DNA of 64,000 bases from the NCBI GenBank assembly GCA_002321305.1, contig DCMF01000098.1:28976-92975 (forward strand), read 5' to 3'. Below are positions 12,117 through 64,000 of the stretch, piece by piece. The translations under genes were made by a program, and so were the position numbers. The DNA comes from Verrucomicrobia bacterium UBA1629 (lineage in GTDB: Bacteria > Verrucomicrobiota > Kiritimatiellia > RFP12 > UBA1067). Each line of letters begins with the position of its first letter. Within the stretch, counting starts at the first letter, position 1. The notes under the pieces are model-generated. The model made no database searches and was not told the origin of the DNA. It saw only the letters and a program-made list of their open reading frames with translations.

Positions 12117-12117
12117 T

Positions 12118-14977: not shown

Positions 14978-15066
14978 AGCGGCGCGTATTATAGCACAAA
15001 AACGGCCTTTGGGCGTCCCGCCATCGACCGCGCGCCCCGTGCCCGAGAACGGAACGTCCCTGCGGC

Positions 15067-22412: not shown

Positions 22413-22470
22413 GGACTTTCTCCTATTCAAGATGATCCGAATTATACCAAAAAATGGGCCGTCCCGTGGG
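22413..22470 (-). promoter_or_regulatory. Promoter of the C10-peptidase gene: TTTTTTGGTATAAT extended -10 and AGGAGA RBS.
   Basis: Minus strand reads ggcccaTTTTTTGGTATAATtcggatcatcttgaatAGGAGAaagtccATG. Confidence 0.45.
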
Positions 22471-25734
<3,264 letters not shown>

Positions 25735-26513
25735 TTTCGATCATTTCCTCAAAAGGTTTCAGAAGGCCAAGAATTGGTCAGAAAGCCAAGAATTGGGAAG
25801 TTAGAAAGTGGTATGAAGCGTGGCATGAAGAGTTATATGAAGAGTTGTATGAAATGAAGGCGAGAAGTTAAGGCGAGAAGTTAAGGCTAGACATATAAGA
25901 CTAGAAATTAAAGCAAGAAGTTAAGGCAAGACATAAAGGCTAGAAGTTAAGGCTAGAAGTTTCTGAAAGCTTGATTTTTATTTTGCCATTCGACGGACTC
26001 ATTCCCGCTGCGCGTCCATTCGTCCGTCGCGGCGCGGCGGTTGGACGGACGGGCAGGCATCTGCACACGCCCGTTCCCGCTGCGCGTCCATTCGTCCGTC
26101 GGCAACAGCACGGCGGCGCGGGCCGGGAATCAGGCCGTCTTTCAGGGGGCGCCGCACGTCGACCGTCGCACGAGCGGACGCGCAGCGGGAGTGAGTGCGA
26201 CGGCTGATGAACTTACCTTCCGTCATCTGGCCTCTCCCCTGTCATCTGGTCTCTCCCCGATCATCTGACCTCTGGTCTCTCCCCAGTCATCTGGTCTCTT
26301 CCCAGTCATTTGACCGCTGGACTCTTCCCTGTCATTTGACCTCTTCTCAATCATTTGATCTCTTTCCTCCTTCTCGTCTTCTTCTCCCTCCTTCTCTCTT
26401 CTTCTACCTTCATCTACCCGTCGTCTCTCCGCTTCCCCTTCGCCCTTCCTCTTGTCGCCCCCTCTTCTTTCGGCATCCTCTCCGCCTGCTGAGATCCGCT
26501 TTTCGTCCTCCCT
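25735..26513. repeat. 779-bp intergenic region upstream of uvrA with four distinct repeat blocks. They are paired CCAAGAATTGG boxes, a purine-rich tandem array (AAGGCGAGAAGTT units, about 25850-25965), two 28-bp direct repeats embedded in hairpins (26002-26029 and 26074-26101), and a pyrimidine-rich tandem array (GTCATCTGGTCTCTCCCC units, about 26220-26340).
   Basis: Read directly from the sequence. No convincing ORF, tRNA or CRISPR structure is present. Confidence 0.7.
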
Positions 26514-27410
26514 TCACAGGTTCGGGATGTGATGCGAAAGCTTCTCCGCCAGCACGTCTTCCAGCCGGGCGAAGTCGCGGAAGGAAAGCGAGATCAGCCT
26601 CTTCTTCTCGCGCTGATACAGGATCTGCTTCTTCTGCCGGTTCGCGACATACGCCGGCGTGTCCATCCCCCAATACTCGATGTACAGGTCAAACTCCGGC
26701 AAGTAGAAGTCGGGACGAATCCGGTCGCCGCCCGCAACCATCATGCGCGCGTCATAGCGGTAGGCAATCCCCTTCGCCGCCAGCCAGTCGCCGATGCGCT
26801 TCTCGCCCCGCGACTGCACCGCCACCTCGTCCACCGTCCTCAAGCGCTTCGCCGCCTCGACGTTCGTCTCGAACTGCGCGTCCTCATGCGTCTTCTCCTC
26901 GAAGCAATGAAAGCAGTAGGTCTTGCCGTATTTCGCGCGGCTCCGCATCGCCTCCTCTTCGGAGACGACCCGACGGCAGCGCGTGCACCAGTGCTTCAGG
27001 CGCGCCCGACACTTCTCCTCGGCGGCTTCCGCCGCCGCGATCGCCTCGTTGGCGGCGTCCCGCACATACGCGGGATGGTTCGGATTGCGCACGACATCCC
27101 GCAGGACATCCAGCTGCAGCACCGTCAGCCGGTCCGCGCACTTCCGCAGCGTCTTCAGGAGATACTGCAGGACCTGCGGACGCGCCTCCTTCTCAATCGC
27201 CGCCGTCAGCGGCACGACCAGCAGTCCCCGCAGGTCGGGCGCCCGGTCAACCAGCTTGCCGAGCGCACTGGCCGCCGCGCGCCGCACGGCCGGGAAGGGA
27301 CTCTTCAGCAGCCCTTCCAGCTCCCGCGCGTCGGACGACGAACCCGTCTCGCCGAGCGCGACCGCCCGTGCGCGAAGCGCTTCGGCTTCAGCTGGACGTG
27401 ACACTGCCAC
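26514..27410 (-). CDS. Hypothetical protein with N-terminal HEAT-like repeats, a central zinc ribbon (CTRCRR...CFHCFEEK), and a C-terminal DUF559/Vsr-like PD-(D/E)xK endonuclease-like domain.
   Basis: The C-terminal region reads GEKRIGDWLAAKGIAYRYDARMMVAGGDRIRPDFYLPEFDLYIEYWG...QKKQILYQREKKRLISLSFRDF. This matches the DUF559 pattern (E..L...G..f.r......DF.lP...l.IE.dG). Confidence 0.55.
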   Translation of the reverse strand: MAVSRPAEAEALRARAVALGETGSSSDARELEGLLKSPFPAVRRAAASALGKLVDRAPDLRGLLVVPLTAAIEKEARPQVLQYLLKTLRKCADRLTVLQLDVLRDVVRNPNHPAYVRDAANEAIAAAEAAEEKCRARLKHWCTRCRRVVSEEEAMRSRAKYGKTYCFHCFEEKTHEDAQFETNVEAAKRLRTVDEVAVQSRGEKRIGDWLAAKGIAYRYDARMMVAGGDRIRPDFYLPEFDLYIEYWGMDTPAYVANRQKKQILYQREKKRLISLSFRDFARLEDVLAEKLSHHIPNL

Positions 27411-27425
27411 GGGCCCCGCCCCCGC

Positions 27426-29003
27426 CTACAGGTTCTTGTTCACGTCGAGCGCGAGCAGGAACTCCGGGTTCGACTTCGTCTTCTTCAGCGAGTTCAGGAC
27501 CGAGCGCATCGCCGATTCTGGACCCGCCGCCGCGAGGATGCGCCGCATGCCCCACGTCTTCTCCAGCTCCATCGGGTCCAGCAGGAGGTCTTCCTTGCGC
27601 GTGCCCGACTTCTCGATGTCGATGGCCGGGTAGATGCGCTTGTCCGCCAGGCCGCGGTCCAGCACGATCTCCATGTTGCCCGTGCCCTTGAACTCCTCGA
27701 AGATGACCTCGTCCATGCGCGAGCCGGTGTCCACGAGGCCCGTCGCGATGATCGTCAGCGACCCGCCGCCCTCGATGTTGCGCGCCGCGCCGAAGAAGCG
27801 CTTCGGACGGTGCATCGCCAGCGCGTCCACGCCGCCCGTCAGGATCTTGCCGGAGTGCGGCTGGACGGTGTTGTAGGCGCGCGCCATGCGCGTGATCGAG
27901 TCCATGAGGATGATGACGTCCTTGCCGTTCTCGACCTGGCGCTTCGAGAACTCCAGCACCATCTCCGTCACGTTGACGTGGTGCTGCGGCTCCTCGTCGA
28001 ACGTCGAGGACAGCACCATCGCCTTCGTGTTGCGCTGCATGTCCGTCACCTCCTCCGGCCGCTCGTCGATGAGCAGGATGATGAGGATCGCCTCCGGGTA
28101 GTTCTTCGAGATCGCGTTCGCCATCTTCTGCAGGAGGACGGTCTTGCCGACGCGCGGCGGCGCGATGATGAGGCCGCGCTGGCCGAAGCCGATCGGCGTG
28201 AAGAGGTCGATGACGCGCGTCGAGAACTCCTTCGGGTCGGTCTCCAGCAGGATGCGCCGCGTCGGGAAGGTCGCCGTCAGGTTCTCGAAGTGGATGACGC
28301 GCGCGGCGACGGACGGCTCCTTGCCGTTCACCGTCTGCACGTTGCCGAGGCAGAAGAAGCGGTCCTTGTCGCGCGGGTCGCGGATCGGGCCCTCGATGAG
28401 GTCTCCCGTGCGGAGCGCGTGGCGGCGGATCTGCTGCTGCGTGACGAACACGTCCTCCGGGCAGGCGAGGAAGTTGTTCTTCGCCGACCGCAGGAAGCCA
28501 TGGCCCTCGCGCACGATCTCCAGGCAGCCCGACGCCAGGACGGCGCCGCCCTGCTGGAGGTACTGGCGGATCGCCGCGAAGATGAGCTCGTGCTTGCGGT
28601 AGGTGCCAAGCTCTTCCGGATCGGCCCCCGGCATCATGCGCTCGACGATGACCGGCGCGGGCCACGTCTGGATGTCGGCGAGGCGGTATTCGGGCATCTC
28701 CGGGTTGCGGTGCGGATTCGCCGGCGCGGACTCGGTCGCCTTCGGCTCCGTCGGCAGCGGCGCGTTGAGGAGCGGGTTCACCGACTCCTCGCCGTTCGCG
28801 CCGCGAATGGGCGAGCTGTTCTGCCGCGCGCCGCCGTTGCCGCCGCGATTGAAGTTGCCGCGATTCTTGCCGAAGAACTTCTTCTTCGGCGGATTCTGCT
28901 TCTGCGCGGGCGCGGCGTTTCCGTTCGGATTGCCGCCGTTGCCTTGGTTCTGCTGCTTGGAGGCTTTCATCGCCCCCGCGAATACGTCTAGTTCGTCGGA
29001 CAT
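27426..29003 (-). CDS. rho: Transcription termination factor Rho with a Gly/Asn/Gln-rich N-terminal extension.
   Basis: Walker [18 protein letters not shown], the RNA-binding CSD region, and a conserved C-terminus. 525 aa. Confidence 0.95.
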
Positions 29004-30124: not shown

Positions 30125-33100
30125 TCACTCCGCCTTGGGGGCGGGCTTGACTTCGGCCTCGTCCACCCGCCCGCTGCTCATCGAAAGCTCGCGGCCAGAC
30201 GGCGTGATCAGGCGGCCCGTCACGAAGATCAGCAGGTTCCGCTTCGTCGTCTTCTCCGCATGGCTGCGGAAGAGGCGGCCGATGAAGGGCAGGTCGCCCA
30301 GGAACGGCACCTTGTCGTCCATCGCCTTGCGCGCCTCGGTGATGAGGCCGCCCATGACGACCGTCGAACCCGGCGTGATCGACACCTTCGAGTCGATCGA
30401 GCGAACATGGAAGAACGGCTGTTCCATCGGCGCGTCATACCACGTCATCGTCGAGGAGGAGGCCGTCGAGACGTTCGCCGCCGCGTCCGTCGCCGACGAG
30501 ACAACCGTCTTGGCCAACGCAGCCGTTTCATTTGGCGTGAGACTCGCGCCAATCGTCGTCAGCGCCGTCGACATGCCCGTGAAGATGTTGCCGATGTCGG
30601 CCATCATGCCCGACGACGTGTTGCCGGAGAACGGGATGCGCATGCCGTAGTTGTGCCAGATCGGCTCGTCGACGACCGCCGGCTTCAGCTCGAGGTCGAT
30701 CGTGCCGCCGTTCGCCTCGGAGTAGGTCGGGATGACGTCGAGGATCACGCCAACCTCACGCATCGTGAAGTTCTGCGGCTCGACGACCGCGAGAATCGCC
30801 GACTGCCCGCCGCCCGATGAGCCGCTGGACGAACCCGACGAACTCGACTGGAGCTGCACGTCGTAGTCCTGCGGATAAATATACTCCGTGACGACCTTGA
30901 TGATGGCCTGTTCGCCCGACTTCGTGACGACCTTCGGGGCCGAGAGAAGATCCGTGTCGCTGCGCTGCGAGAGCATGTGCAGGATCATCGAGAGGTCAGC
31001 CTGGCCAAGGAAGGCGTTCACCCGCAGGAACTGGTCGTTGTTCGACGCCGACTCACCCGAAATGTGGTTGCCGACCGTCGAGAGGTAACGGTTGCCGTTG
31101 CCATAGTCCGACGTGCCGCCAAAGGCGTCCACGCCAACATGGCCTGAACGATCCCCTTTCGCATACTCTCTACTCCAAACATCAGACACAACACCTGACG
31201 ACGTTGTGCGTTTCACAACCTGTCTCGGTCTTAACGTCGTGCCAGCACCCGTTTTGACCTCTTCAAGGACGACTTCATCAAGTACCCCCCCATCCGAGGT
31301 CGTCGATCCATAGCCTGCCCTCTTGAAGCCCAGTGCCTTGCCAAGACCGTCTTTGAGCGCCAGGTTGCTGTTCAGGATCCACTCGAAGCCGAGCGAGTTG
31401 AGGTCTTCCTGCGAGACTTCGACGAAGCGCGTCTCGATCTCGATGAGCTGCGGCTGGCCGCCGAGTTCGTCAAGCACCTTCTCGAACTCCGCGAGGTTTT
31501 CGCGCGTGTTGCGGACATAGAGCTTGCCGAGGGCCTTGATGTGCTTGATCGACGAGCCTTCCGGCCACTTGACGCCCATCTCCTCGAAGAACGCCTTCCA
31601 GTCGCGGCCTTCGCCCTCGCCCTCTTCGTCCGCCGCCTTCTTCGCCTGGCGGTTGGACGCGCCGAAGCCGCCCATCTCCTTCATTTCCTCGGACGCGGAG
31701 TTTACGCGCTCGACGAACGCCTCCGGCACGTTGTACTTGCGCGAGAGAAGCTCGGCGGTCGACATGTCCTTCTGCATGACCATGACGATCGGCCCGCGGA
31801 CGATGAACTTGTAGTCGACCGAGTCGCAGACGAGCTTCAACGCATCGTAGAACGAGATGTCGCTCGCAGTGATCTTCGGAATCGGCGGAAGGCCGTTCGC
31901 CGACGCCTCGGAATCGTCCGACGCATTGGACGAGAAGTCGTCCGACGACTCTTCCTGCGCCGCCTGCTGCTTGATGGCCCCGACCGGGGTGCGCAGCACG
32001 AAGTTGAAGCCGCGCTTCTCGATCGGGATGTCAGGACGGTCATAGTCGCGCGACGCCGTGCGGAAGAACTCGACGGCCTCGATGATCGTCGCCGGCGGCT
32101 TGAACTCGATCGTCGGCAGACGCATCGCGCGCATGCGCTTCTCGATGTCCTGCTCCTGCGTCCGCTCCGGGTCTTCGCCCGCCTGCGCCTTGACGGTCTC
32201 GGACGACGCCTCCGTCAGCTGCGCGGCGTTGACGGCGTAGACGGGCCGCCACGCCTCATCGACGTCGGCAATCATGCCGTCGCGCGCCGCGACACGCTCC
32301 TGCTCCAGAATCGTCTGGCGCTTGCGCTGAATCGCCCTGCGCAGACGAATCGCCTCCTGATTGTACGGATCGGCCTTCAGGACGATTTCGCATTCGTCGA
32401 GCGCGCGCGCCATGTCGCGCAACGCGAAATACTGGCGCGAACGACGCAGATGACGGCGAATCTCCTCGCGGTCAGCCTTGTAGTCGTCGTCGTTGCGGCG
32501 CTGGGACGCCTCCGTGAAATCGGTCTTCGCCTCGTCGACGGTGCTCTGGGCCGTCCACTTCTCCAGCGCACGACGCGCCTTCGGGTGGCGCATCTCCAAC
32601 GCCTTCTCCATCAGCTCGACCGCCCGCGCGCGACGACCGATCTCGTCCTCCTGCAGGGCGGCGCGGTAAAGGCCCTCGGCGATGCCCTGGGCGCACTCCT
32701 TGCGCAGGGCCTTCGACGTGGGGCTGTCGTTCAGCAGCTTTGTCGCGAGGCCATAGTGGCGAACGGCGTCGGTGAACTCCTTCGACTCCATGCTCGCGCG
32801 CGCCGAGAGAATCTCGCGCTTCGCCTGCGCGTCGAGCGAGTCGCGGCGAAGGCGCTCGGTCGTCGCGATGTTCACGAGAAGCTCCTCGTCAGGGCGTTTC
32901 GCGGTGGCGGCCTTTTCGGCCTTCTTCGCCTTCGGATTAGTCGAGGCGACTTCTTCGGCCTCATCAGCCTTTGGCTCAACGGCCTTGTCCGCCGCAGACT
33001 TGGCCGACTCTTCTTCGGCCAGCTGGTCGAGCAGATTCAGCACGTCATCGACTTTCGCGGTTGCGGCCGCTTCGGCCTTCGGCTCATCGGCCTCGTCTGC

Positions 33101-33385
33101 CGCAACCGGTTCAGCCGCCGCTTTCGCCACCGGGGCTTCCGCCGTTGCCGAAGGCTCTTCCGCCGCCGAGGTTTCGGTCTTTGTCTCTTCGGCGGACACC
33201 ACAGGCTCGGCCTCGGCCTTTGCGGTGGGCGCCTCGACCGCCTCCGCCTTTGCGGCGGGCTTCGCGGCCTCGCCCTCAAGATCCTTGAGCAGGTCGTCAA
33301 GGTCGTCTTGCGCCGACACGCTCAACGAGGTAACCGACATCGCCAACGCCGCACTGCACGCGACAATCTTTTTGAAGTTCGTCAT
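30125..33385 (-). CDS. Secretin (PilQ/GspD family), 1086 aa. It has a signal peptide, an Ala/Glu/Lys-rich and TPR-like N-terminal region, and a C-terminal secretin domain.
   Basis: C-terminal VPFLGDLPFIGRLFRSHAEKTTKRNLLIFVTGRLITP is the secretin signature. The signal peptide is MTNFKKIVACSAALAMSVTSLSVSA. Confidence 0.85.
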   Translation of the reverse strand: MTNFKKIVACSAALAMSVTSLSVSAQDDLDDLLKDLEGEAAKPAAKAEAVEAPTAKAEAEPVVSAEETKTETSAAEEPSATAEAPVAKAAAEPVAADEADEPKAEAAATAKVDDVLNLLDQLAEEESAKSAADKAVEPKADEAEEVASTNPKAKKAEKAATAKRPDEELLVNIATTERLRRDSLDAQAKREILSARASMESKEFTDAVRHYGLATKLLNDSPTSKALRKECAQGIAEGLYRAALQEDEIGRRARAVELMEKALEMRHPKARRALEKWTAQSTVDEAKTDFTEASQRRNDDDYKADREEIRRHLRRSRQYFALRDMARALDECEIVLKADPYNQEAIRLRRAIQRKRQTILEQERVAARDGMIADVDEAWRPVYAVNAAQLTEASSETVKAQAGEDPERTQEQDIEKRMRAMRLPTIEFKPPATIIEAVEFFRTASRDYDRPDIPIEKRGFNFVLRTPVGAIKQQAAQEESSDDFSSNASDDSEASANGLPPIPKITASDISFYDALKLVCDSVDYKFIVRGPIVMVMQKDMSTAELLSRKYNVPEAFVERVNSASEEMKEMGGFGASNRQAKKAADEEGEGEGRDWKAFFEEMGVKWPEGSSIKHIKALGKLYVRNTRENLAEFEKVLDELGGQPQLIEIETRFVEVSQEDLNSLGFEWILNSNLALKDGLGKALGFKRAGYGSTTSDGGVLDEVVLEEVKTGAGTTLRPRQVVKRTTSSGVVSDVWSREYAKGDRSGHVGVDAFGGTSDYGNGNRYLSTVGNHISGESASNNDQFLRVNAFLGQADLSMILHMLSQRSDTDLLSAPKVVTKSGEQAIIKVVTEYIYPQDYDVQLQSSSSGSSSGSSGGGQSAILAVVEPQNFTMREVGVILDVIPTYSEANGGTIDLELKPAVVDEPIWHNYGMRIPFSGNTSSGMMADIGNIFTGMSTALTTIGASLTPNETAALAKTVVSSATDAAANVSTASSSTMTWYDAPMEQPFFHVRSIDSKVSITPGSTVVMGGLITEARKAMDDKVPFLGDLPFIGRLFRSHAEKTTKRNLLIFVTGRLITPSGRELSMSSGRVDEAEVKPAPKAE

Positions 33386-33433
33386 TTAAACCACCTATTC
33401 GTTAGTATGGGGAGTAGTATACAATATCTTTTC

Positions 33434-34549
33434 TCACTGTTCAAGGGCTTCAAGTGTCCGGCGCTTGCCCGTGCGGACGTTCTGGAAGGTCACCTTCGCG
33501 CCCTTTCCGGCGGGCACGACCTCGACGACCTTGAACTTTTCGCCGTTCAGATCCAGCTCCGTACCGGGCACGGCCTCGAACGTCGTGACGCTGCCGCGCG
33601 TGTAGTTGAGCGTCGCCATCACGTCCACCGGCTGCGGCTTCGCCCGCTTGTCCTGCACGATCACGAGCGTGACGGTCTTGCCGTCCGCCTTGCGCGCGAC
33701 CGTGACTTCCGAGACGTCATCCGTCACGAACAGGCCCTTCATGCCCTTGCGCGGACGCTTCACCTCTTTTTTCTCGTAGGTCTTGAGGACGAAGCCCGAC
33801 GGGGTCTTCGTGCCCTTGCCGATCTCCTCGCCGAGGACGGCCGAGAGCGTCCGCCCGGCGCGGCCGTAGTCGTCGCGCTGGTTGGGGTCGAAGAACTCGC
33901 ACCGCCAGCCCGACGGGATCTTCGTCGCCTTCGTGAAGACGAACGGCAGGTAGGTCTCCTTGAGCGGCAGGGCGATCTGGATCGAGTCGAGGTAGTCCGG
34001 ATGGTCGCGGCGGTCGGTCGGATCCGTCTTCGCGAGATACTCCTCGAGGTTCGTGAAGCCGTCGCCGTCCTTGTCGGCGTTCGCGTCCGACGGATCGTTC
34101 GGGTTCAGCCCATAGCGCTTCTCCCACTCGTCCGGCATGCCGTCGCCGTCGGAGTCGAGGACGACCTTCTTCTCCACCTCCTGCTTCTCGCCGCAGAAGG
34201 GGCAGTTCGGGAACGCCTTGACGTCGCCGGGAATCACCTTCTGGCACTTCTTGCACTTGACGCGCCGCTCGCTTGCGAGGAACGACGCGCTCGTCCCCGT
34301 CAGCTCGTTCACGACCGTCGGGCTCTTGACGAGCCGGACGGCGCCGGCGTACGCCGTCATGTCCACGGCCGCGACGCCTGTCTCGGACGGCTTCATGCGG
34401 CTGACGGCCTGCGCGGCATTCGCGGCGGCCGTCTCCGGGTCGTCGCCGGCGGAGAGCGCGAAAAAGGCGATTCCGCCCACGAGCGCCAGCACACCGACGC
34501 CGGCGGCGATTCGGTCGTAATAGGCCGCAAAGAAATTCTGGTCTCTCAT
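33434..34549 (-). CDS. Membrane-anchored protein in the PilP/GspC position. It has an N-terminal TM helix, a zinc ribbon (CKKCQ...CPFCGEK), TSP3-like acidic repeats (DSDGDGMPDEWEKRYGLNPNDP, DKDGDGFTNLEEY), and a C-terminal beta domain. Start at MRDQNFF.
   Basis: The true start was found by ATGA overlap with the upstream gene and a GGAGG RBS. The upstream 315 codons of track ORF 33434..35494 are Arg/Gly-rich and out of frame with the real PilO-like gene. Confidence 0.6.
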   Translation of the reverse strand: MRDQNFFAAYYDRIAAGVGVLALVGGIAFFALSAGDDPETAAANAAQAVSRMKPSETGVAAVDMTAYAGAVRLVKSPTVVNELTGTSASFLASERRVKCKKCQKVIPGDVKAFPNCPFCGEKQEVEKKVVLDSDGDGMPDEWEKRYGLNPNDPSDANADKDGDGFTNLEEYLAKTDPTDRRDHPDYLDSIQIALPLKETYLPFVFTKATKIPSGWRCEFFDPNQRDDYGRAGRTLSAVLGEEIGKGTKTPSGFVLKTYEKKEVKRPRKGMKGLFVTDDVSEVTVARKADGKTVTLVIVQDKRAKPQPVDVMATLNYTRGSVTTFEAVPGTELDLNGEKFKVVEVVPAGKGAKVTFQNVRTGKRRTLEALEQ

Positions 34550-35571
34550 TTTCCAACCTCCTCCGTCTTGGCTTCGTCCTCCATTGTCCTGAAATCGTAG
34601 ACGGTCAGGGACAGCGTGACCGTGAACGGCGCATCCAGCGCCGGGTCCGTGACGATGCCGTTCTTCGCCTCGGCCGCGTCCTTCTTCTCCTCGACGACCG
34701 CGCCGCGCCGTCCGCGACGGCCGCGCCCCGACGCCGCGTTCCGCGCCGCCTCGCGCTTGTCGCCGACGCCGAGCGCCTCGGCGACCGGATCGGCCGTGCG
34801 CGCAAAGGTGAAGCCGTCGATGACCATGAACCGCTCGTTCGTGCCGAGCGCGTTCACCGCCTTGACGAACGCCGGCGCGCGCGTCGCGAAGGTGAAGACA
34901 TACGAGAAGGCCGACGGCTGGGAAGCCGCCGCGCCTTCCGCCGCCGGACGCTTCTTCGCCGACGGCTTCTTGCCGCCCTTCTTCGCCTTCTTCTCCTGCG
35001 CGTCGTCCTGTGACGCCGTCGCCTTGAAGTCGACGTTCACGAGTTCGGAGACGCCGCAGGATGCCAGCGTCTCGACGACGAGCATGACGTCGTTCCACCG
35101 GCGCTGCAGCTCCGGCAGCTCGGCGTCCGTCGGCATCTTGCCCTCGGCGATGTAGCTGCGGAACGGGCCGAACGCGAAGTCGGGCTTCACGAGGACGCCG
35201 TTCACCGCGCCCGGCAGCGCCGAAAGGCGCTTCGCGTCCGCGACGAGGTCGGTCTTGAACTGCGCGGGCGTCATCTTGCGGATCGGGTGGTCGCCGCGCG
35301 CGGCCAGCTTCTCGGCCTCCGCGCACCACGCCGTCAGGCGCGCCGCGTTCTCCTCGATCGCCTTGACGCTCGCCGGACAGGGATAGACGCTCTTGCGCGA
35401 GAGCGCCTGGGCTTTCGCCTGGACGGTCTCCAGACCGTCGTTCCCCTCGTCGTCGCCCTCGATGGCCGCGACTTTCGCGGCGTAGGCGCTCCAAGTGAAA
35501 TAGGCCATGGCCAGGACGGCCAAGCCGATCACGCCGCCCGAGACGGCCAGAATCATTCGGTTCTTGTTCAT
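34546..35571 (-). CDS. PilO/GspM-like bitopic membrane protein. It has an N-terminal TM helix, a coiled coil and a Lys-rich linker.
   Basis: MNKNRMILAVSGGVIGLAVLAMAYFTW TM segment. Its position between the PilMN and PilP-like genes and the ATGA overlaps at both ends support the call. Confidence 0.5.
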   Translation of the reverse strand: MNKNRMILAVSGGVIGLAVLAMAYFTWSAYAAKVAAIEGDDEGNDGLETVQAKAQALSRKSVYPCPASVKAIEENAARLTAWCAEAEKLAARGDHPIRKMTPAQFKTDLVADAKRLSALPGAVNGVLVKPDFAFGPFRSYIAEGKMPTDAELPELQRRWNDVMLVVETLASCGVSELVNVDFKATASQDDAQEKKAKKGGKKPSAKKRPAAEGAAASQPSAFSYVFTFATRAPAFVKAVNALGTNERFMVIDGFTFARTADPVAEALGVGDKREAARNAASGRGRRGRRGAVVEEKKDAAEAKNGIVTDPALDAPFTVTLSLTVYDFRTMEDEAKTEEVGK

Positions 35572-37169
35572 TTGAACTTCATCTCCACCGTGAATTGTTC
35601 GACCTGCGCGTCCTTGCCCAGCGCGCTCATGTCCGAAATCTTGACCGTGTCGGCGTCAATGCAGGGCCGCCCCTTGAGCTTGTCGACGACAAGCTCGCCC
35701 GGCGTCTTGCCGCCCTGGCCCTTCACGCGGTCGCTCCAGTAGCGCACCGTCAGGCGCCCGTCGTCCCAGCGCTCGATCCACATGCCGGGCAGCAGGGAGT
35801 CGCGCACCGCGTTGACGCGCTGCGCGGCGGCCGCGCGCGCGACGAGCAGCTTGCGCAGCGACTCGGCCTCGGCCTCGGCGGCCGCGAACTTCTCCGTCGC
35901 CGCCTGGACCTTGCGGTCGGACGCCGTCAGCGTCGCGACCTGCGCCTGCACGGCGTCGCGCTGCGCGGCGACGACCTCCTCCTGACGGCCGATCCCCAGC
36001 ATCACGCAGACGAGCGCCGCGACGAGCGTCACGCCGGCCGCGATGACGAACGGGATCTTGGCCTTCTCGGCCCGCGCCGCGACAAGCGACGGCGGCAGCA
36101 GGTTGATCGCGAAGCGCGCCGCGCCCGCCTCGTGCAGGGCGAGGCCCGCCGTGACGGCGATGAGCGCGCCGTCCGCCTCCAGCGCGGCCGCATCGACCTT
36201 CGGGCCGACGGCCAGCGCCTCGAACGGATTGAAGAACACGACCTCGATCTGGAGCGACTCCTGGAAGAAGACGTCGATCTGCGGCAGGAGGGCCGTGCCG
36301 CCCGTCAGGTAGAGGCGCGTCGGCGCCGTGCCGCCCTGCTGGCTGCGGTAGAAGTTGATCGAGCGCGAGATCTCGGCGTTGAGGCGCGTCATCACCGCGC
36401 GGCAGGCCTTCGAGATCCGGTCGGCGACCTCGTCGTCGTCCTCCGTCACGCCGCCCATCGAGACGTAGCCCTTCTCGCGCTTGAGCTGTTCGGCCTCCTC
36501 GGTCGTGCAGCCGAGCGCGGCGGCGATCTCCTTCGTCACGGCGTTGCCCGCGACGGGGATCGAGCGGTTGTAGATCTTGTCGCCCTCGACGATCACGAGC
36601 GACGTCGTCTTCGAGCCGATGTCGAGGAGGACGCTGCACGAGCCGTCGTCGCCGATCGCGTGGCGCAGGGCGTTCGTGAGCGCGAGCGGCGCGGCGTCGA
36701 CGAGCTCCGGCGTGAAGCCGGCGGCCGCGACGGCCGTCGTCAGCGCCTCGACCTGGTCGACCTTCGCGGCGACGATCATCACCGACTTGTCGCCCGTCTC
36801 CGTGTCGCCCAGCACCTGGCGGTCGCAGACGATCTCGTCGATCGGGAACGGGATGTTCTGCTCGATCTCGTAGCGCACCATCTGCTCGAACTTTTCCGCG
36901 CCGCCCGCCATCGGAATCGCGGCGAAGCGCGGGAAGACCATCTGGCCGGAGATGGCGAGCGCGATCTTGCCGGGGCGGATGCCCTTCGTGCGCACGACCT
37001 CCTGGATCGCGGGCGTGAGGATCGCGCCGGCGTCGCCGCCGTCCAGCGGCGCGGCAAGCGGCGCCGTGCCGTAGTTCACGAGCGTCAGCGCGCCTTTCGC
37101 GCCGGCCTCGTACTCGGCGAGCTCGATGTTGGCCGCGCCGATGTTGAGGGTTAGATATCGTTTAGCCAT
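35568..37169 (-). CDS. PilM-PilN fusion protein. An actin-like PilM ATPase-fold domain is followed by the PilN INLLP motif, a TM helix, a coiled coil and a periplasmic domain.
   Basis: The N-terminus LTLNIGAANIELAEY is PilM/FtsA-like. The internal sequence FAINLLPPSLVAARAEKAKIPFVIAAGVTLVAALVCVMLGIG carries the PilN signature and a TM helix. Confidence 0.8.
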   Translation of the reverse strand: MAKRYLTLNIGAANIELAEYEAGAKGALTLVNYGTAPLAAPLDGGDAGAILTPAIQEVVRTKGIRPGKIALAISGQMVFPRFAAIPMAGGAEKFEQMVRYEIEQNIPFPIDEIVCDRQVLGDTETGDKSVMIVAAKVDQVEALTTAVAAAGFTPELVDAAPLALTNALRHAIGDDGSCSVLLDIGSKTTSLVIVEGDKIYNRSIPVAGNAVTKEIAAALGCTTEEAEQLKREKGYVSMGGVTEDDDEVADRISKACRAVMTRLNAEISRSINFYRSQQGGTAPTRLYLTGGTALLPQIDVFFQESLQIEVVFFNPFEALAVGPKVDAAALEADGALIAVTAGLALHEAGAARFAINLLPPSLVAARAEKAKIPFVIAAGVTLVAALVCVMLGIGRQEEVVAAQRDAVQAQVATLTASDRKVQAATEKFAAAEAEAESLRKLLVARAAAAQRVNAVRDSLLPGMWIERWDDGRLTVRYWSDRVKGQGGKTPGELVVDKLKGRPCIDADTVKISDMSALGKDAQVEQFTVEMKFK

Positions 37170-37185
37170 AGGATTGAAGCCCTTG

Positions 37186-37270
37186 TTCCCGTCTGTCCTC
37201 CGCCTTCTGTCGCCTGTCCTTCGAGACGAGAGCGTTCAGGACAGCGGACAATGGACAAAAGACGAACGGG
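37186..37270. repeat. Family E imperfect palindromic element immediately upstream of the pilMN start. A related copy is at 41696-41780.
   Basis: cccgtctgtcctccgccttctgtcgcctgtccttcgagacgagagcgttcaggacagcggacaatggacaaaagacgaacggg. Confidence 0.6.
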
Positions 37271-37294
37271 GGTGTTCTCTCATTCGATCATTTC

Positions 37295-37999
37295 TTACTG
37301 CATCGTCGTCTCGTAGTCGTTCGGGTTCACGAGCGCCCAGATCGTCTTCGAGCGATCGACGAGGCCCTGACGGCGCTCGACCATCGGCTTGCCGCCCTGC
37401 TGCGCGTTCATGATGTTCTGGTCGTCCCAGAACTGCGAGTCGGCCTTGATGCCCTTGATCTCGCTCACGGTGCCGCCGCCGAGGACGTCGCCGTTCTGGT
37501 TCGACACCGTGAAGCCGATCGCCTTGGGCTCGCCGTAGAGCTCCAGGTAGGACGGCGGCAGGCAGACGCACGCGGCGTGCGAACCCTGCGGGATGTTGTA
37601 GTAGGTCACGGTCGTGTTGAAGTAGCTGTACGGCGGCAGGCCCATCTTGTTGCCCTTGTTCTCCTTCGCGCTCTTCGTCTCCAGCATCACGTGCCAGGTG
37701 AACGTGAGCTGGTCGAGGAACTTCGCGTAGGTCGTGTACTTCGTCTCGATCACGATCCACTTGCGCGGCTTCGTGTAGCAGTTGCCGATCATCGTCGCGC
37801 CCTGGATGGACGGCGCGGGCAGACAGCTCGACTGGCCCGTTTTCGGCATCTGGTCGATGAGGATCTTCGCCTCCTTGCCCGTCGTCACGGGACCGTCCTC
37901 GTTGCCGGCCATCGCCTGGACGCCCTTCTTTGTGCGCGGCGCCGCAACCGCCGCCGCGACCGCCACCATCGCCACCGTCATAACCATCAGCTTCTTCAT
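37295..37999 (-). CDS. Secreted hypothetical protein (signal peptide MKKLMVMTVAMVAVAAAVAA). Function unknown.
   Basis: 234 aa. Start at Met16 of the track ORF, with AAAGGAAC upstream. No recognisable domain. Confidence 0.55.
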   Translation of the reverse strand: MKKLMVMTVAMVAVAAAVAAPRTKKGVQAMAGNEDGPVTTGKEAKILIDQMPKTGQSSCLPAPSIQGATMIGNCYTKPRKWIVIETKYTTYAKFLDQLTFTWHVMLETKSAKENKGNKMGLPPYSYFNTTVTYYNIPQGSHAACVCLPPSYLELYGEPKAIGFTVSNQNGDVLGGGTVSEIKGIKADSQFWDDQNIMNAQQGGKPMVERRQGLVDRSKTIWALVNPNDYETTMQ

Positions 38000-38000
38000 G

Positions 38001-38080
38001 TTCGTGTTCCTTTCTGGTTTTTTGGTTTTCGAATTCAGATTCAAGATTTCAGATTTAAAATTTCAGATCTCTGTTTTATC
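38001..38080. promoter_or_regulatory. AT-rich upstream region of the secreted-protein gene with three direct ATCTGAA(A)T repeats. It is a candidate operator or UP element.
   Basis: Minus strand reads agATCTGAAATtttaaATCTGAAATcttgaATCTGAATtcgaaaaccaaaaaaccagaaaggaacacgaacATG. Confidence 0.3.
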
Positions 38081-38190
38081 AGACGTGAAAGACGAGAGAG
38101 GCGTGAGGGACAGGAGGCCCTTGGCCGCTCGTTGTCGCCTTAGTCTCTTCGCGCTCACGTCTCTCATGTCACTTGTCCCTCATGTCGTTG
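38081..38190. repeat. Family D palindromic element (GGCGTGAGGGACAGG ... CTTGTCCCTCATG), intergenic.
   Basis: gacgagagaggcgtgagggacaggaggcccttggccgctcgttgtcgccttagtctcttcgcgctcacgtctctcatgtcacttgtccctcatg. Confidence 0.7.
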
Positions 38191-38199
38191 AGAATTTTC

Positions 38200-39440: not shown

Positions 39441-40478
39441 TTACTTCGTCGTCGACTGCAGCAGCGTCACGCACATCGTGCCGACGATGTCCTCCGCCGA
39501 GCAGCCGCGCGAGAGGTCGTTCATCGCCTTCGCGAGCCCCTGCAGGTTCGGGCCGATCGCGTCCGCCTCGCCGAGGCGCTGCGCGATCTTGTAGCCGATG
39601 TTGCCCGCCTGGAGGTCCGGGAAGATGAAGACGTTCGCATCGCCCTGGATCGCGCCGTCCCGGTTCTTCTGCCGGCCGACCGACGGCACGATGGCCGCGT
39701 CGAACTGCAGTTCGCCGTCCATCCGAATGCCCTTCTCGGCGAAGGCCGGCTTCGCCAGCTCGACCGCCTTCTGCACCTTCTCGACGAGATCGCCGCCGGC
39801 GGAACCCTTCGTGGAGAACGAGAGGTACGCGACCTTCGGCTCGTTCCCCGTCAGGTCCCGGTACGTCTGCGCCGTCGCGAGGCCGATGTCGACGAGCTGT
39901 TCCGCCGTCGGGTTGGGAATGACGGCGCAGTCGCCGAACGCGAGCACGCTGTCGCCCGAGGCCGTCGGCCGCTTGAGGTCGAGGATGAAGCACGAGGAGG
40001 CCGTCTTCACGCCCTTCTGCGTGCCGAGCGTGTGGAACGCCGCACGCAGCATGTCGCCCGTCGAGGCGATGGAGCCGGCGACAAGGCCGTTGACGCGGCC
40101 GAGCTTGACCATCATGCCGCCGAAGTAGATGCGCTTCGTGCGGAGCGTCTTCTGCGCCCCGGCGAGGTCGATGATCTTCTGCTTCTCGGCGGGCTTGCGC
40201 GACTCCTTTGCGTTCCAGGCCGCGAGATAGGCCTCTTCGAGTTCCGCGTCGCCCTGCGTGTAGTCGATGACCCGGATGCTGCGGTCGGCGAGCTTCAGGC
40301 CCGCCTTCGCCTCGGCGTCGGCGATCTCCGCCGCCGTGCCCAGCACGACCGGCGTGCAGATCTGGCGATCGACGACGGCGCAGGCCGCCGTGATGACGCG
40401 CGGGTCGTTTCCCTCGGGCAGAACGACCGTGCCGTTCAGCTTCGAGGCCCTTTCGATAATGTTCTTGATGGCGTTCAT
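39441..40478 (-). CDS. pta: Phosphate acetyltransferase Pta (short form, 345 aa). Start at MNAIKNIIERA.
   Basis: Pta core motifs (IYFGGMMVKLGRVNGLVAGSI, SFSTKGSAGG) are present. The ATG overlaps the ackA TGA stop in an ATGA. The remainder of track ORF 39441..41783 is antisense junk. Confidence 0.9.
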   Translation of the reverse strand: MNAIKNIIERASKLNGTVVLPEGNDPRVITAACAVVDRQICTPVVLGTAAEIADAEAKAGLKLADRSIRVIDYTQGDAELEEAYLAAWNAKESRKPAEKQKIIDLAGAQKTLRTKRIYFGGMMVKLGRVNGLVAGSIASTGDMLRAAFHTLGTQKGVKTASSCFILDLKRPTASGDSVLAFGDCAVIPNPTAEQLVDIGLATAQTYRDLTGNEPKVAYLSFSTKGSAGGDLVEKVQKAVELAKPAFAEKGIRMDGELQFDAAIVPSVGRQKNRDGAIQGDANVFIFPDLQAGNIGYKIAQRLGEADAIGPNLQGLAKAMNDLSRGCSAEDIVGTMCVTLLQSTTK

Positions 40479-41671
40479 TTCTTTCCCCCCAAGACCCTTA
40501 CCGTGTCGCGGGCGATCATCAGCTCCTCGTTCGTCGGGATGACCACGACGGGGATCTTCGAGTCCTTCGTCGAGATGACCTTCAGCTCGCCGCGCACCCT
40601 GTTCGCCGCCTTGTCGAGCTTGATGCCGAGCGCGCCGAGGCGCGCGAGGATGCGCGCGCGCACTTCCGACGAGTTCTCGCCGATGCCGCCGGTCAGGACG
40701 ATGGCGTCCGCCCCGCCGACGATCGTGTTGTAGCCGCCGATGTAGAGCGCGACGCGGTAGGCGAGCATCTCCAGCGCGAGTTCGGCCATCTTGTCGCCCT
40801 TGTCGGCCTTCGCGCAGATGTCGCGGCAGTCGCTCGACCCCGTGAGCGCAAGCAGGCCCGACTTCTTGTTGAGGAGCGTGTCCGCCTGCTCCGGCGTGAG
40901 GTGCTCGGCCTCCATGATCGCGAGGACGGCCGCCGCGTCGATGTTGCCGCAGCGCGTGCCCATCACGAGGCCGGCGAGCGGCGTGAGGCCCATCGTCGTA
41001 TCGACGACCTGGCCGTTCTTGATCGCCGCAAGCGAGCTGCCGTTGCCGAGGTGGCACGTGACGAGGTTCACCTTCGCGAGCGGCTTCTTCAGGAACTTCG
41101 CCGCCGCGAGCGTCACGAACTTGTGGGACGTGCCGTGGAAGCCGTACTTGCGGATGCCGAGCTTCCTGTAGTACTTCGGGTCGATCGCGTACATGCCCGC
41201 GCAGTCCGGCATCGTCGCGATGTGGAAGGCCGTGTCGAAGACGCCGACGTTCGGGACGCCCTTGAAGATCTTCTCGCACGCCTCGATGCCGCCGAGGTTC
41301 GCCGGCATGTGGAGGGGGCCGAACTTCACGAGCTTCCTCGCCTTCGCCATGTTCGCCTTGTCCATGAGCGCCGAGTCCTTGAAGACCTCGCCGCCGTGGA
41401 GGACGCGGTGGCCGATCGCGTCGATGCCAAGCGGGTTGCGAGACGTGAGGCGTGAGTCGTGCGTCGAGACGAGGGCCGGATTCGCCGAGAGCTCGGCGAC
41501 GACCTGCTTCAGGGCCTCGGCGTGATCCTTCGGGCCGCCGCAGCCGATGCGCTCGATGACGCCCTTCGCGAGACGCGTCTCGGTCTTCATGTCGAAGAGC
41601 TGGTACTTGAGCGAGCTGGAGCCCGAATTGATGACGAGAACTTTGCGAATTTCCTTTTTCATCATAGTCAC
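40475..41671 (-). CDS. ackA: Acetate kinase AckA.
   Basis: VLVINSGSSSLKYQLF N-terminus and FHGTSHKFV motifs, 398 aa. Confidence 0.95.
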   Translation of the reverse strand: MTMMKKEIRKVLVINSGSSSLKYQLFDMKTETRLAKGVIERIGCGGPKDHAEALKQVVAELSANPALVSTHDSRLTSRNPLGIDAIGHRVLHGGEVFKDSALMDKANMAKARKLVKFGPLHMPANLGGIEACEKIFKGVPNVGVFDTAFHIATMPDCAGMYAIDPKYYRKLGIRKYGFHGTSHKFVTLAAAKFLKKPLAKVNLVTCHLGNGSSLAAIKNGQVVDTTMGLTPLAGLVMGTRCGNIDAAAVLAIMEAEHLTPEQADTLLNKKSGLLALTGSSDCRDICAKADKGDKMAELALEMLAYRVALYIGGYNTIVGGADAIVLTGGIGENSSEVRARILARLGALGIKLDKAANRVRGELKVISTKDSKIPVVVIPTNEELMIARDTVRVLGGKK

Positions 41672-41695
41672 TTTCGGTTTCAGATTTGTCTTTTC

Positions 41696-41780
41696 CCCGT
41701 CCCGTTTGTCCGCTGTCCTTTGCGCGCCGTCCTTCCTTCGAGAGCCTCGGACAGAGGACAGCCGACAGCGGACAAACAGG
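41696..41780. repeat. Family E palindromic element in the ackA leader, downstream of the giant gene stop.
   Basis: cccgtttgtccgctgtcctttgcgcgccgtccttccttcgagagcctcggacagaggacagccgacagcggacaaacagg. Confidence 0.6.
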
Positions 41781-41845
41781 CATTCATCTCATTCGATTAT
41801 TCAGTCATTCGATTATTCGATTATTCGATCATTCGATTACTGTTC
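41781..41845. repeat. Family B-type single-orientation array (CATTCGATTATTCG units) spanning the 3' end and stop of the giant gene.
   Basis: cattcatctcattcgattattcagtcattcgattattcgattattcgatcattcgattactgttcgatctcgacc. Confidence 0.6.
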
Positions 41846-44800
41846 GATCTCGACCTTGTAGAAGCCGCCGGTCGCCTGGACGTCGGACATCGGAACGCGG
41901 ATGACGCCCGACTTCAGGCTGTCGCCCGAAACCGTCACCGCCTCCGTCGCGACCGTCTGCCATTCGCCCGCAAGCGTCGCGGTGTGCAGCACCTTCACCG
42001 TCACCGTCGAGCCGAGCTTGACGCGGTAGACCCCCGACGCGACCTGTTCCGGCTGCGTGACCGAACCCGCGACCGTCAGCTCGACAGCCCCCGCCGCCGC
42101 GTCGAACGCCATGCCGGAGATGACCAACGTACCGTCCTCGACGGTCGGGTTTTGGCAGAGCTCGCCCGTCGCCGGATCAACCGTCAGGTTCGGCGAAACG
42201 CCCATCGCCAGCGCCGCGAAGGACGCGGACGAGAGGAAGGCGTTCTGGATGCCGCTCGCCAGACCCGCCGTCGGCACGTTCGCGCGGTTGATCTCGTAGA
42301 GCATGTCCCTGACCAGGGTGTTGTCGATGGCGACCTCGCCCGCACCCGACAGGGTCAGGCGATCCACGCCCTTGGCCGTCAGGAACGTGCCGTTCGCGCG
42401 CTGTGCCGCCGTCGCCATCACGTACTCCCAGGCGTCCGGCAGGTTGTCGCCGTCCGTGTCAGCGTCTTCGAGGTAGATCGTCACCGCCTCGCTCGCGCCC
42501 ACGCTGCCGCCGACCGTGACCGCCACCGGGTTGAGGTAGTCGGCCGTCGAGCCGTCACGCTGGCAGAAGTAGCCCATCGACTCCCACTTGTCCCAGACGC
42601 CGTTGCCGTTCGAGTCCACGAACGCCTGCAGGTAGTAGTCGCCCTTCGGGAGCCCGAGGAGGCGGCAGTTGACGCCGCCGTCCGTCACCGTCTTGTCGAC
42701 GAATCCGCCGGAGACCGGCGCACCCGTGAAGTCGGGCGACGTGTAGGCCCGGACGCGGATGAGCGCGTTCGCGTCGTTCGTGACGACCGCCGGCCCGTAG
42801 TAGCGGACGGACGTCTGGATGCTGCCGATGTCGTAGCCGTTCGTCTGCACGCCCATGCGGAACGTGCCGCCCGTGACGAAGCTGTCGTTCTTGAACTTCG
42901 CGTTCGCCGCGGAAATCGACCACGTGTACGCCTTGTTGTTCTCGAAGACGCCCGTCGCGCCCGCCGGACGGTCGCCGACGAACACCGGCGCCGCCCATGT
43001 GTAGACGCCGTCCGCATCCGCCGCCGGCATCCGCAGGTAGTCGCTCGTCCAGCTGAACGCGCCATCCGCGCTCTTGATCATGACCTTGAACGCCGTGTAG
43101 CCGTTGCTGTTGTAGGGCATCCGCCACTGGAACGTCGGCTGACCCAGCTTCACGACGCCGTTGCCGCTGGCAATCGGCTCGGGCAGAAGGCGCTTCGTGT
43201 CGAACCAACGCACCGGCATCACCTTCGACATGTTGCTCGATTCACCAAGGGACGCAACCGATTCGTTTCCAATTACAATGCGGTAGACGACACCGAGTAC
43301 ATCGCCCAACATGTACTGTGAAGCCCCCGTCGAAGACGGAATGCGCCCGTTACTGCCTATCCGACTAATAACATCACCATACAAAGTCTCCCAATCTACA
43401 TCTAACGCGCCCGTCGCCAAGAAGTTAGCCTCGGTAATCCACGGATTCACGCCATCAGAGACTTGCATGTCAAGGATGACGCGATTGCCTCCTGCGCCAA
43501 CATCTTCAGCGAAAACCTCGCCCTGCGTACCGAAGATGATGTGCCGCACGACGCGGATGCGGTTGTAGACGCCGCCGCTCGGCTGGGACGCCGACACGAA
43601 GTTCGTGTAGTTGCCGCTTTCCGTGCCGTAGAGGACCGTGCGATCATCGAGACCCTTGATCGGATCGACGCGCGCAAAGACCGGCGTCGTGTCCGTCAGC
43701 ATGAGCGCGGCCGACGTGCCCTTCCACGAGACGTCCACGCCCGTGACGCAGCCATAGGGCTCGCCCGCCGTGTACGCGCCGTCGCCGTCCAGGTCGGCGA
43801 AGGCGATGATCGTGTTCAGGCCCTCGCGGACGTGGCCCGTGTCGGCCTGACCGAGGTAAAGCTTGCGCGGCAGGCCCACCGCCTCGTTCGCCGAATAGGC
43901 GATACGGAAGGACTGATCCTCCAGCGAGATGTAGTCGCTGTCATTCGTCACGTTGGAGACGTACTGATCCTTGAAGACACCAAGGTTGAGGTCGAATGCA
44001 CCCGTGGTCAAATCGACCGTGCCAAGCACGCGCCCCGACTTGGTGTGAAGCCACTTCGCGGTCTTGCTGCTCTCGTCGCTGCGAACCTCCAGATCCGTCA
44101 GCACGCTGTACTCCGTGCCGCGCGAGAGAAGCTCAACGTTGTTGTCGCCGTACTTGCGCCTGTCGGCGTCATATTCGGCGCGCGTACCGCGCTTGTCCTC
44201 GTACCACACCTTTCCCGTGGCGACGCGGTAGTGGGTGACCGACCAGCTGTACGTCTCGCTCGACGGATCGTAGCAGAACTCAAGCTGCAGGGAGTTCTTG
44301 TTAATGTAGCCCGGCGTCAACGTACCGATCGCGTGGCGATTCGACCACTTGCCAATCGTCCGCGTATAGGCCGTGCCGTCGGCGGTCTGCGACGAGCCGC
44401 TGCCGGAACTGGACGTTCCCGTGCCTGTGCTGCTCGTCTTGCTGACCTTGCCGATGTTGTAGACGGCATCCGCCCCGCGGTTCATGTTCGTGCTCGTGTA
44501 CGTCTGGACGACGAGCGACGCCTTCTCGACCGCATCCTTGCGCGGACCCGCGTAGTTGACGGCGAGTGCAACCGCCGGGATCGGATAGTCCGCCACAAGG
44601 CCATCGGCCGCCGCATAGTGCGACTGCTCATCGGCAACAATCGGCATGCCCTGCTTCGCGTAGCGCGCCTCGCTGCGGTTCGACCAGCCGTCGCCGTCCG
44701 CATCCGCATACGGGTCATAGACGCTGCGCGAGGCATAGCCGTCCGAATAGAGGTCTTCCCAAGCGTCGTCCACAAGGTCGTGGTCAGTGAAGATCTCGCC

Positions 44801-63814: not shown

Positions 63815-63879
63815 ATCGCACATTTGTTTTGAGGGCGGAAGATGCACCCCGCGCGTGGCGAGGGCACACTCCACCCAGT

Positions 63880-63915
63880 TTATTTCGTAGCGAATTATAC
63901 CAAAAATCGCCGCGC
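63880..63915 (-). promoter_or_regulatory. Promoter of giant gene 3, ATTTTTGGTATAAT extended -10.
   Basis: Minus strand reads ggcgATTTTTGGTATAATtcgctacgaaataaactggg. Confidence 0.45.
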
Positions 63916-64000
63916 GCGGACAAGAGCCGCGCGCGCGTTGCGCGCGCCAGGGGGACGAGGTTCGGCGGCTGCGCACCGCGCGAGCGCCTGCCTTCGGTTC

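Follow-up and report, generated by a model that had tools for sequence, protein, structure and literature searches.

The closest described counterpart of the locus considered here is the Amuc_1098–1102 gene cluster of the human gut symbiont Akkermansia muciniphila, for which two descriptions exist: a cluster resembling those of type IV pili, with products plentiful in fractions of the envelope (PMC5332112, PMC10688800), and a locus for mucin utilisation, MUL2 (PMC13174399; bioRxiv 10.64898/2025.12.30.696933). Amuc_1100 and the cluster to which it belongs are among the most studied Akkermansia gene products, having drawn attention through TLR2 agonism and mucin utilisation. Amuc_1100 has been noted to resemble PilO/PilN structurally (bioRxiv 10.64898/2025.12.30.696933), amuc_1099 and amuc_1100 have been termed “both uncharacterized” (PMC13174399), and the most recent survey consulted is confined to Verrucomicrobiota (PMC13174399). 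Here we present a cluster of five co-oriented genes from an uncultured gut bacterium of the class Kiritimatiellia, which spans positions 30125–37999 on the minus strand of a 64-kb stretch (hereafter the window; G+C about 65%) of contig DCMF01000098.1 of Verrucomicrobia bacterium UBA1629.

The five open reading frames (ORFs) match the NCBIfam families Amuc_1102, 1101, 1100, 1099 and 1098, respectively, in the Akkermansia order. We consider it likely that the locus is the Kiritimatiellia orthologue of A. muciniphila Amuc_1102-1101-1100-1099-1098, i.e., MUL2 plus its secretin, and that it encodes the membrane-spanning alignment section of a machine resembling the type IVa pilus, its role in the handling of complex glycans being one that we infer. 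The system is already known and is covered by curated family models; the new part is its occurrence in Kiritimatiellota, a phylum for which the searchable literature gave no relevant match to Amuc_1100, pili or secretins.

The products, starting from the first gene of the cluster, are an Amuc_1102-family (MUL2A-like) protein (234 aa; 37295–37999), a PilM–PilN fusion of the Amuc_1101 family (MUL2B-like; 533 aa; 35568–37169), a PilO-like bitopic membrane protein of the Amuc_1100 family (341 aa; 34546–35571), a PilP/GspC-like protein of the Amuc_1099 family (371 aa from its ATG; 33434–34549) and a secretin of the Amuc_1098 family (1086 aa; 30125–33385). An earlier reading of this DNA made without database searches (the sequence-only reading) had delineated the last four of these, and translation of the ORFs bore out their coordinates and lengths; it overlooked the first gene, as well as the identity of the whole with Akkermansia Amuc_1098–1102/MUL2, although both NCBIfam and Pfam have models for these families. 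The description in its title of the genes as all ATGA-coupled goes further than its own text: it stands for two junctions, where the overlaps can be read directly (35568–35571 and 34546–34549), but not for the secretin gene, which lies behind a 48-nt spacer. The ATG of the 371-aa protein overlaps the stop of the preceding gene, while the mechanically called ORF extends upstream to a TTG.

Families and folds of the five components

The 533-aa protein begins with a cytoplasmic actin-like PilM domain (aa 9–346; nt 36132–37145) that matches Pfam PilM_2 at 5.5e-43, and the protein scores 175.6 bits against TIGR01175, above the cut-off of 133. This domain is followed by a PilN-type INLLP motif (aa 355–359; nt 36093–36107), which lies within the stretch FAINLLPP (353–360) and whose INLLPP form is unchanged across 12 homologues, then by a single transmembrane (TM) segment at about aa 370–395, and finally by a periplasmic coiled coil and a small C-terminal domain that extend to aa 533. 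The matches to PilM_2 and TIGR01175, the FAINLLPP stretch and the TM segment together uphold the proposal of the sequence-only reading that PilM and the start of PilN are joined in a single polypeptide. A search of the PDB with a 12-member profile had its best matches in PilM, among them that of Myxococcus xanthus (6e-42) and that of Thermus thermophilus (1e-35); in the same search, the alignment with the engineered Pseudomonas aeruginosa PilM-PilN(1-12) chimera 5EOU ran through residue 359, and residues 4–126 of M. xanthus PilN aligned with residues 354–475 of the fusion at E 0.0098. The NCBIfam model Amuc_1101_fam matches at 9.8e-119 with 398 bits, below its equivalog cut-off of 650, over profile positions 5–460 of 608, which correspond to the PilM domain, the TM segment and the coiled coil. 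Judged from its sequence, the protein is thus a divergent member of the Amuc_1101 family, in the form of a PilM with a membrane-spanning C-terminal extension.

The 341-aa protein is predicted to comprise a TM helix (aa 5–26), further helices and then an alpha-beta-beta-alpha-beta-beta core (AlphaFold2 model, pLDDT 72), which is interrupted by two disordered polybasic loops at aa 186–215 and 274–303. Its direct match to NCBIfam Amuc_1100_fam is low (6.3e-11; 42 bits against a cut-off of 180), while a homologue 93% identical to it bears the Pfam domain PF28028 (Amuc_1100). When the model was compared with the PDB using Foldseek, all of the top 10 hits were crystals of Amuc_1100 (6laf, 6kny, 6lad; E 2.5e-7, TM 0.65), followed by PilO of P. 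aeruginosa (2rjz; probability 1.0, E 0.058) and of M. xanthus (3jc8, chain Oa) and by the PilO core 5uvr. The identity in the structural alignment with Amuc_1100 is about 12%; sequence searches of the PDB with either the single sequence or a profile of 29 close homologues returned nothing, and Pfam PilO gave no match on this protein. The PilO-like identity proposed earlier is therefore strengthened by the Amuc_1100/PilO fold seen in the structure comparison, the link being one at the level of a predicted fold, drawn from the AlphaFold2 model and Foldseek alone. The polybasic loops themselves carry KKAKKGGKKPSAKKR and GRGRRGRRG, with R285, R286, R288 and R289 invariant across 29 homologues; they may be of relevance to the binding of polyanionic sulfated glycans or peptidoglycan.

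The 371-aa protein combines a TM anchor (aa 13–36) with a C4 zinc ribbon of the form CKKC...CPFC, two TSP3 calcium-binding repeats at about aa 130–172 (Pfam TSP3_bac, 3.8e-10) and an all-beta C-terminal part (aa 190–368) that includes an HR-type domain. The ribbon and the repeats, both of which had been recognised from the letters alone, are reinforced by their conservation: C99, C102, C116 and C119 are invariant among 31 homologues, as are the DxDxDG motifs. The protein exceeds the curated cut-off of the Amuc_1099 family in NCBIfam (5e-22; 78.9 bits against 50). Pfam PilP gave no match on the proteins of the cluster, and structure comparison identified a genuine PilP/GspC HR domain within this one; an assignment of this kind for the Amuc_1099 family was not found in the literature searched. 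The HR domain is the part that contacts the secretin N0 domain in type IV pili and in type II secretion systems (T2SS). The sequence-only reading, which had seen in this gene a non-canonical membrane protein filling the PilP/GspC position, was thus right about the position, but the protein is a decorated homologue rather than a mere occupant.

The secretin opens with a Sec signal peptide (aa 1–25), after which come an acidic, Ala/Glu-rich low-complexity stretch with an isoelectric point of 4.3 (aa 26–167), a helical, Arg/Glu-rich region (aa 168–430), N0/N-domain-like regions at about 431–660 that were judged by inspection alone, and the secretin domain itself with Ser/Gly-rich inserts (aa 661–1086; Pfam Secretin, 1.3e-30). 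Of the giant, TPR-bearing secretin with an acidic N-terminus described earlier, the length, the secretin domain and the acidic stretch are confirmed; the TPR matches in the helical region are weak (E 0.0025–0.016) and below the Pfam cut-offs. No AMIN, Secretin_N or STN domain was detected by Pfam in residues 26–669 at E up to 10, these weak TPR matches being the only ones. Amuc_1098_fam matches at 8e-125 across residues 168–1067 with 418 bits, below its equivalog cut-off of 750, and the helical N-terminal region from residue 168 onwards is conserved and common to Amuc_1098. The GspD and PilQ (TIGR02515) models score equally, at 115 bits (cut-off 351) and 110 bits (cut-off 284), respectively, both far below their cut-offs, and a PDB search likewise matched the C-terminal domains of GspD and PilQ alike.

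The 234-aa product of the first gene has a hydrophobic N-terminal signal or anchor without a prepilin motif. The direct match to NCBIfam Amuc_1102_rel is weak (9.7e-07; 28.6 bits against a cut-off of 55), and an exhaustive search of representatives was therefore run, in which only 180 clusters (at 50% identity) among 1.84 billion proteins reached E 1e-3. A diverse 49-member profile seeded with this protein, 39 members of which match Amuc_1102_rel, retrieved a single PDB entry, 7DSZ (Amuc_1102), at E 9.7e-18, an entry that the protein did not reach as a single sequence or with a 14-member profile of close relatives. In a closely related contig (L018), which shares 99% identity with the window in the Amuc_1099-like protein, a product of 234 aa at the equivalent position bears Pfam PF28178 (Amuc_1102). 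These profile and annotation matches place the protein in the Amuc_1102 family.

Conservation and genomic neighbourhood

Scanning one genome per GTDB species with an alignment of the Amuc_1100-like protein yielded 14 related loci (L001–L014), and all of those labelled at phylum or class level are metagenome-assembled genomes of uncultured Kiritimatiellota from gut or rumen, some under the label Lentisphaerae; three are labelled just “uncultured bacterium”. The best relative, 93% identical in the Amuc_1100-like protein, was recovered from a human gut sample of the Hadza. Across the 14 loci, tblastn recovered the order giant protein–pta–kdsD–five genes–coaE–rho–uvrA to the extent covered by the fetched DNA, and the five-gene core is found in every relative locus of sufficient reach. 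Within the cluster, divergence is greatest in the Amuc_1100-like protein (48–93% identity), and the Amuc_1102-like protein and the PilM–PilN fusion are the most conserved; the Amuc_1102-like protein is the best-conserved product in 11 of the 13 relatives compared, with 76–98% identity in 11 of the 13 loci and 67–68% in L004 and L007. The precomputed Pfam annotation of L018 gives the order PF28178 Amuc_1102, PilM_2, PF28028 Amuc_1100, TSP3_bac and Secretin. Gene order is also kept in L015, a distant relative whose Amuc_1102-like protein shares 26% identity; there, a 601-aa PilM-like protein carries VNLMP and a TM helix, and the product of the fourth gene combines two TSP3 repeats with a TM helix and CxxC...CxxC. 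The fusion of PilM with PilN and the combination of TM anchor, zinc ribbon and TSP3 repeats are thus traits of the family, since both recur in this distant locus. The notion that these are non-functional ORFs, decayed or brought together by chance, has nothing found in its favour, and we assign it next to no probability, given five intact ORFs in the same order in 14 species at 48–98% identity, invariant motifs and family E-values down to 1e-125.

The immediate neighbours are housekeeping genes, namely pta and kdsD upstream and coaE, rho and uvrA downstream. The flank of MUL2 in Akkermansiaceae is given as [quoted passage not shown] in the legend of Fig. 2 of PMC13174399. The shared secretin–coaE–rho flank argues for vertical inheritance from before the split of Verrucomicrobiota and Kiritimatiellota. 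The presence of the complete cluster with this flank in gut and rumen Kiritimatiellia likewise suggests that the system is older than the split of the two phyla and that the trait is not specific to Akkermansia or Verrucomicrobiales.

From the enormous proteins encoded nearby, the sequence-only reading had drawn a dedicated role in secretion. This is not supported, as the immediate neighbours are the housekeeping genes named above and the whole region is collinear in the 14 relatives; with every gene conserved alike, adjacency to a giant protein is uninformative. A functional linkage to the nearest giant, a 4209-aa protein with Laminin_G_3 and TSP3 repeats (41837–54466, minus strand) that is kept upstream of pta in 14 of 14 related loci, was considered and set aside on the same ground. 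Two further giant ORFs lie on the minus strand: one of 3022 aa with a Gly_rich_2 domain (54908–63976) and one of 1674 aa with a C10 (streptopain-like) peptidase domain, CarboxypepD_reg and Big_1 (17478–22502).

Certain features of the cluster and its surroundings vary among the relatives. The spacers on either side of the Amuc_1102-like gene (37170–37294 and 38000–38199) are hypervariable in the equivalents from L001–L014 and are made of species-specific short tandem repeats, of the ATCTGAA type at 38031–38070 in the window, of ATCGAAT-type heptamers in L001, L003, L005 and L014, and of the AGTTTGA type in L014; their sole conserved part is the ribosome-binding stretch GAAAGGAAC before the ATG. 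The 125-nt spacer between this gene and the PilM–PilN gene contains a long imperfect hairpin (37188–37270, minus strand), for which RNAfold on a 136-nt stretch gave −45 kcal/mol with a z-score of −1.5, unexceptional at this G+C. Among relatives this spacer ranges from 4 to 233 nt with unrelated sequences, and long hairpins occur in some (L001, L003, L007 and L012) and are lacking in others; the hairpin was hence rejected as a conserved RNA element, an alignment of 11 spacers with this spread of lengths having no conserved structure. A role as partial terminator or in mRNA stability is possible. A scan for promoters and terminators found terminator-like sites no commoner than in shuffled sequences. 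Its sole yield was a weak sigma-70-like site in the 48-nt spacer before the secretin gene, a consensus match only (TTGAAC-17-TATACT; 33416–33444, minus strand), which might give the secretin a promoter of its own. L004 (7577–8284) and L007 (7558–8265) carry a divergent Amuc_1102-like allele that lacks the two cysteines of SSCLPAP...IGNCYTKP; these two are close relatives (Rho 97–98% identical), yet far more distant species retain 76–85% identity in the Amuc_1102-like protein, a pattern that recalls allelic replacement at pilin-like loci.

Farther from the cluster, the ORF at 39441–41783 encodes a single 780-aa protein with PTA_PTB at residues 439–773 and a long N-terminal part without a Pfam match; its counterpart in L018 (2765–5154) is split into a separate acetate kinase (396 aa) and a short pta (345 aa). 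L018 also has a PDDEXK_3 gene (14672–15037) between the secretin gene and coaE, which is absent in the window, where the gap is 320 nt. A restriction-modification pair on the minus strand (10902–13047), comprising a XamI-type restriction endonuclease (12118–13047) and a C-5 cytosine methyltransferase (10902–12116), sits between the housekeeping genes nusA/infB and htpG/recA, has the lowest G+C of the left half of the window (0.60–0.63) and is possibly a small inserted island. The 1.7-kb gap between uvrA and rho (25735–27425), in whose region the G+C falls to 0.59 (24–26 kb), holds as its sole ORF one on the plus strand (26195–27691) that overlaps rho and has no family matches.

Proposed machine, its function and competing explanations

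In the machine as we picture it, the PilM domain is covalently joined to a PilN-like segment, with which the bitopic protein of PilO fold would pair. The HR domain of the TM-anchored protein would contact the N-terminal domains of the secretin, and the outer-membrane secretin would complete the set, giving a ring stack that runs from the cytoplasm to the outer membrane. Once exported, the Amuc_1102-family protein would act as a structural partner at the surface or in the periplasm. Genes for the remaining parts (extension ATPase, PilC/GspF platform, prepilin peptidase, and pilins or pseudopilins) would lie elsewhere, as in Akkermansia, for which pilus genes are listed at other loci too (bioRxiv 10.64898/2025.12.30.696933). 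The earlier statement that the window has no pilin, prepilin peptidase or ATPase agrees with the scans made: no prepilin motif of the G-F-T-L-I-E type was found in any frame of the window, and no ATPase, platform or peptidase domain of type IV pili or T2SS was found by Pfam in the 24 larger ORFs, the plus strand and short ORFs lying outside that scan.

The task of such a machine would be to capture or take up glycans that are complex, sulfated or of mucin type, rather than to export giant proteins, and by analogy with Akkermansia genetics a role in glycan or mucin acquisition is probable. As cited in later papers, the MUL genes are needed for the accumulation and use of mucin in Akkermansia (Davey 2023, via PMC12418764 and PMC13174399), marine Akkermansiaceae take up fucoidan (PMC12418764, PMC13174399), and the cluster of Akkermansiaceae is genetically tied to mucin acquisition (via PMC13174399, PMC12418764 and bioRxiv 10.64898/2025.12.30.696933).

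Several points weigh against the identification of the locus as a MUL2-like, glycan-handling pilus machine. Four of the five NCBIfam matches are below the curated equivalog cut-offs, so that these are distant members whose function may have shifted. The likeness of the fusion to PilN appears limited to the segment before its globular periplasmic end (about aa 476–533), and Pfam PilN gave no match in the C-terminal 181 aa at E up to 10. The Akkermansia literature puts Amuc_1100 at the outer membrane or in the pilus, which fits poorly with the role of an inner-membrane PilO. Within the limits of the scans, the window is without a gene for a pilin, ATPase, platform or peptidase. The glycan-uptake role would be carried over by analogy from secondary citations, and the mucin phenotype could equally come from a defect in secretion.

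This last point is the one at which a T2SS-like exporter enters, with the fusion as the analogue of GspL, the PilO-like protein as that of GspM and the HR protein as that of GspC, and with the giants or glycan-degrading enzymes as cargo: a secretion defect would explain the growth phenotype on mucin too. Such an exporter is unlikely in our view, as the cytoplasmic domain is PilM by sequence, with a TIGR01175 score that exceeds the cut-off and no match to a GspL family in Pfam or NCBIfam, and the genes follow the order pilM-N-O-P-Q; moreover, pta and kdsD lie between the cluster and the giants, the scans found no gspE, gspF or gspG-K in the window, and in Akkermansiaceae the cluster with the same coaE–rho flank has no giants among the flanking genes listed in the legend of Fig. 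2 of PMC13174399. Another possibility is a type IVa pilus of the usual kind, used to adhere, to twitch or to take up DNA and without any special link to glycans; in its favour are the gene order and the folds of PilMNOPQ, a set that many bacteria employ for competence and motility. It is considerably less probable still, because the hallmarks looked for (AMIN, and Pfam PilN, PilO and PilP) were not matched, the cluster has family-specific additions (the Amuc_1102 partner, the zinc ribbon with TSP3 and the helical N-terminus of the secretin), and the only genetically studied relative is, by secondary citations, tied to mucin use.

The MUL2-like pilus machine hence remains the reading that we favour, and its component model (Amuc_1101 as a PilM–PilN fusion, Amuc_1100 as PilO-like, Amuc_1099 as a PilP/GspC-HR protein and Amuc_1098 as the secretin) amounts to a structural proposal for the Akkermansia system as well. 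Under it, proteins of the Amuc_1100 type would be inner-membrane alignment parts, which bears on the literature that treats Amuc_1100 as a pilus-like protein in the outer membrane. A much bolder extension, which we offer as a long shot, is that the Amuc_1098–1102 machine is ancestral and vertically inherited in Verrucomicrobiota and Kiritimatiellota, perhaps in the wider Planctomycetes-Verrucomicrobia-Chlamydiae group, that it is devoted to the import of large fucosylated or sulfated glycans via an extracellular or periplasmic element made of the Sec-exported, Ig-like Amuc_1102-family protein instead of class III (prepilin) pilins, and that the polybasic loops of RRGRRGRRG type in the PilO-like protein of Kiritimatiellia are adapted to polyanionic sulfated substrates.

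Likeness to described systems

With the Amuc_1098–1102 cluster (NF042912, NF042425, NF038287, NF045709, NF042424; PF28028, PF28178), the locus shares the same five genes, their order and their strand. It further shares with it a PilM with a C-terminal membrane extension, an Amuc_1100 fold, an Amuc_1099 protein above the family cut-off, a member of the Amuc_1102 family (7DSZ), a secretin with the conserved helical N-terminal region, and coaE–rho downstream. It differs in belonging to the phylum Kiritimatiellota as opposed to Verrucomicrobiota, in the polybasic nature of the inserts in the PilO-like loops (KKAKKGGKK, RGRRGRRG), in an extra acidic low-complexity N-terminus of 140 aa on the secretin, and in having kdsD and pta upstream.

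The type IVa pilus PilMNOPQ set of Pseudomonas, Myxococcus and Thermus offers a second parallel, in terms of gene order, the actin-like domain of PilM, the INLLP motif through which PilN docks onto PilM, the ferredoxin-like fold of PilO with its N-terminal TM helix, the HR beta-domain of PilP, and the secretin. Unlike in that set, a single polypeptide here unites PilM and PilN, a naturally occurring counterpart of the engineered 5EOU chimera; the PilP-like protein has a TM anchor, a zinc ribbon and TSP3 repeats and is not a lipoprotein; the secretin, in contrast to PilQ, has no detectable AMIN domain and has a helical TPR-like region; and a gene of Amuc_1102 type precedes pilM, with no Pfam PilN, PilO or PilP match.

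As for the T2SS, neither membership by sequence (GspL, GspM, GspC, GspD) nor a nearby gspE, gspF, gspG-K or gspO was found in the window, and, unlike in the GspL-GspM-GspC-GspD set, the sequences here are PilM-like and without the PDZ or coiled-coil domain of GspC. Nevertheless, despite the gene order of a type IVa pilus, the domain logic is T2SS-like, with a fusion resembling GspL and a TM-anchored HR protein resembling GspC.

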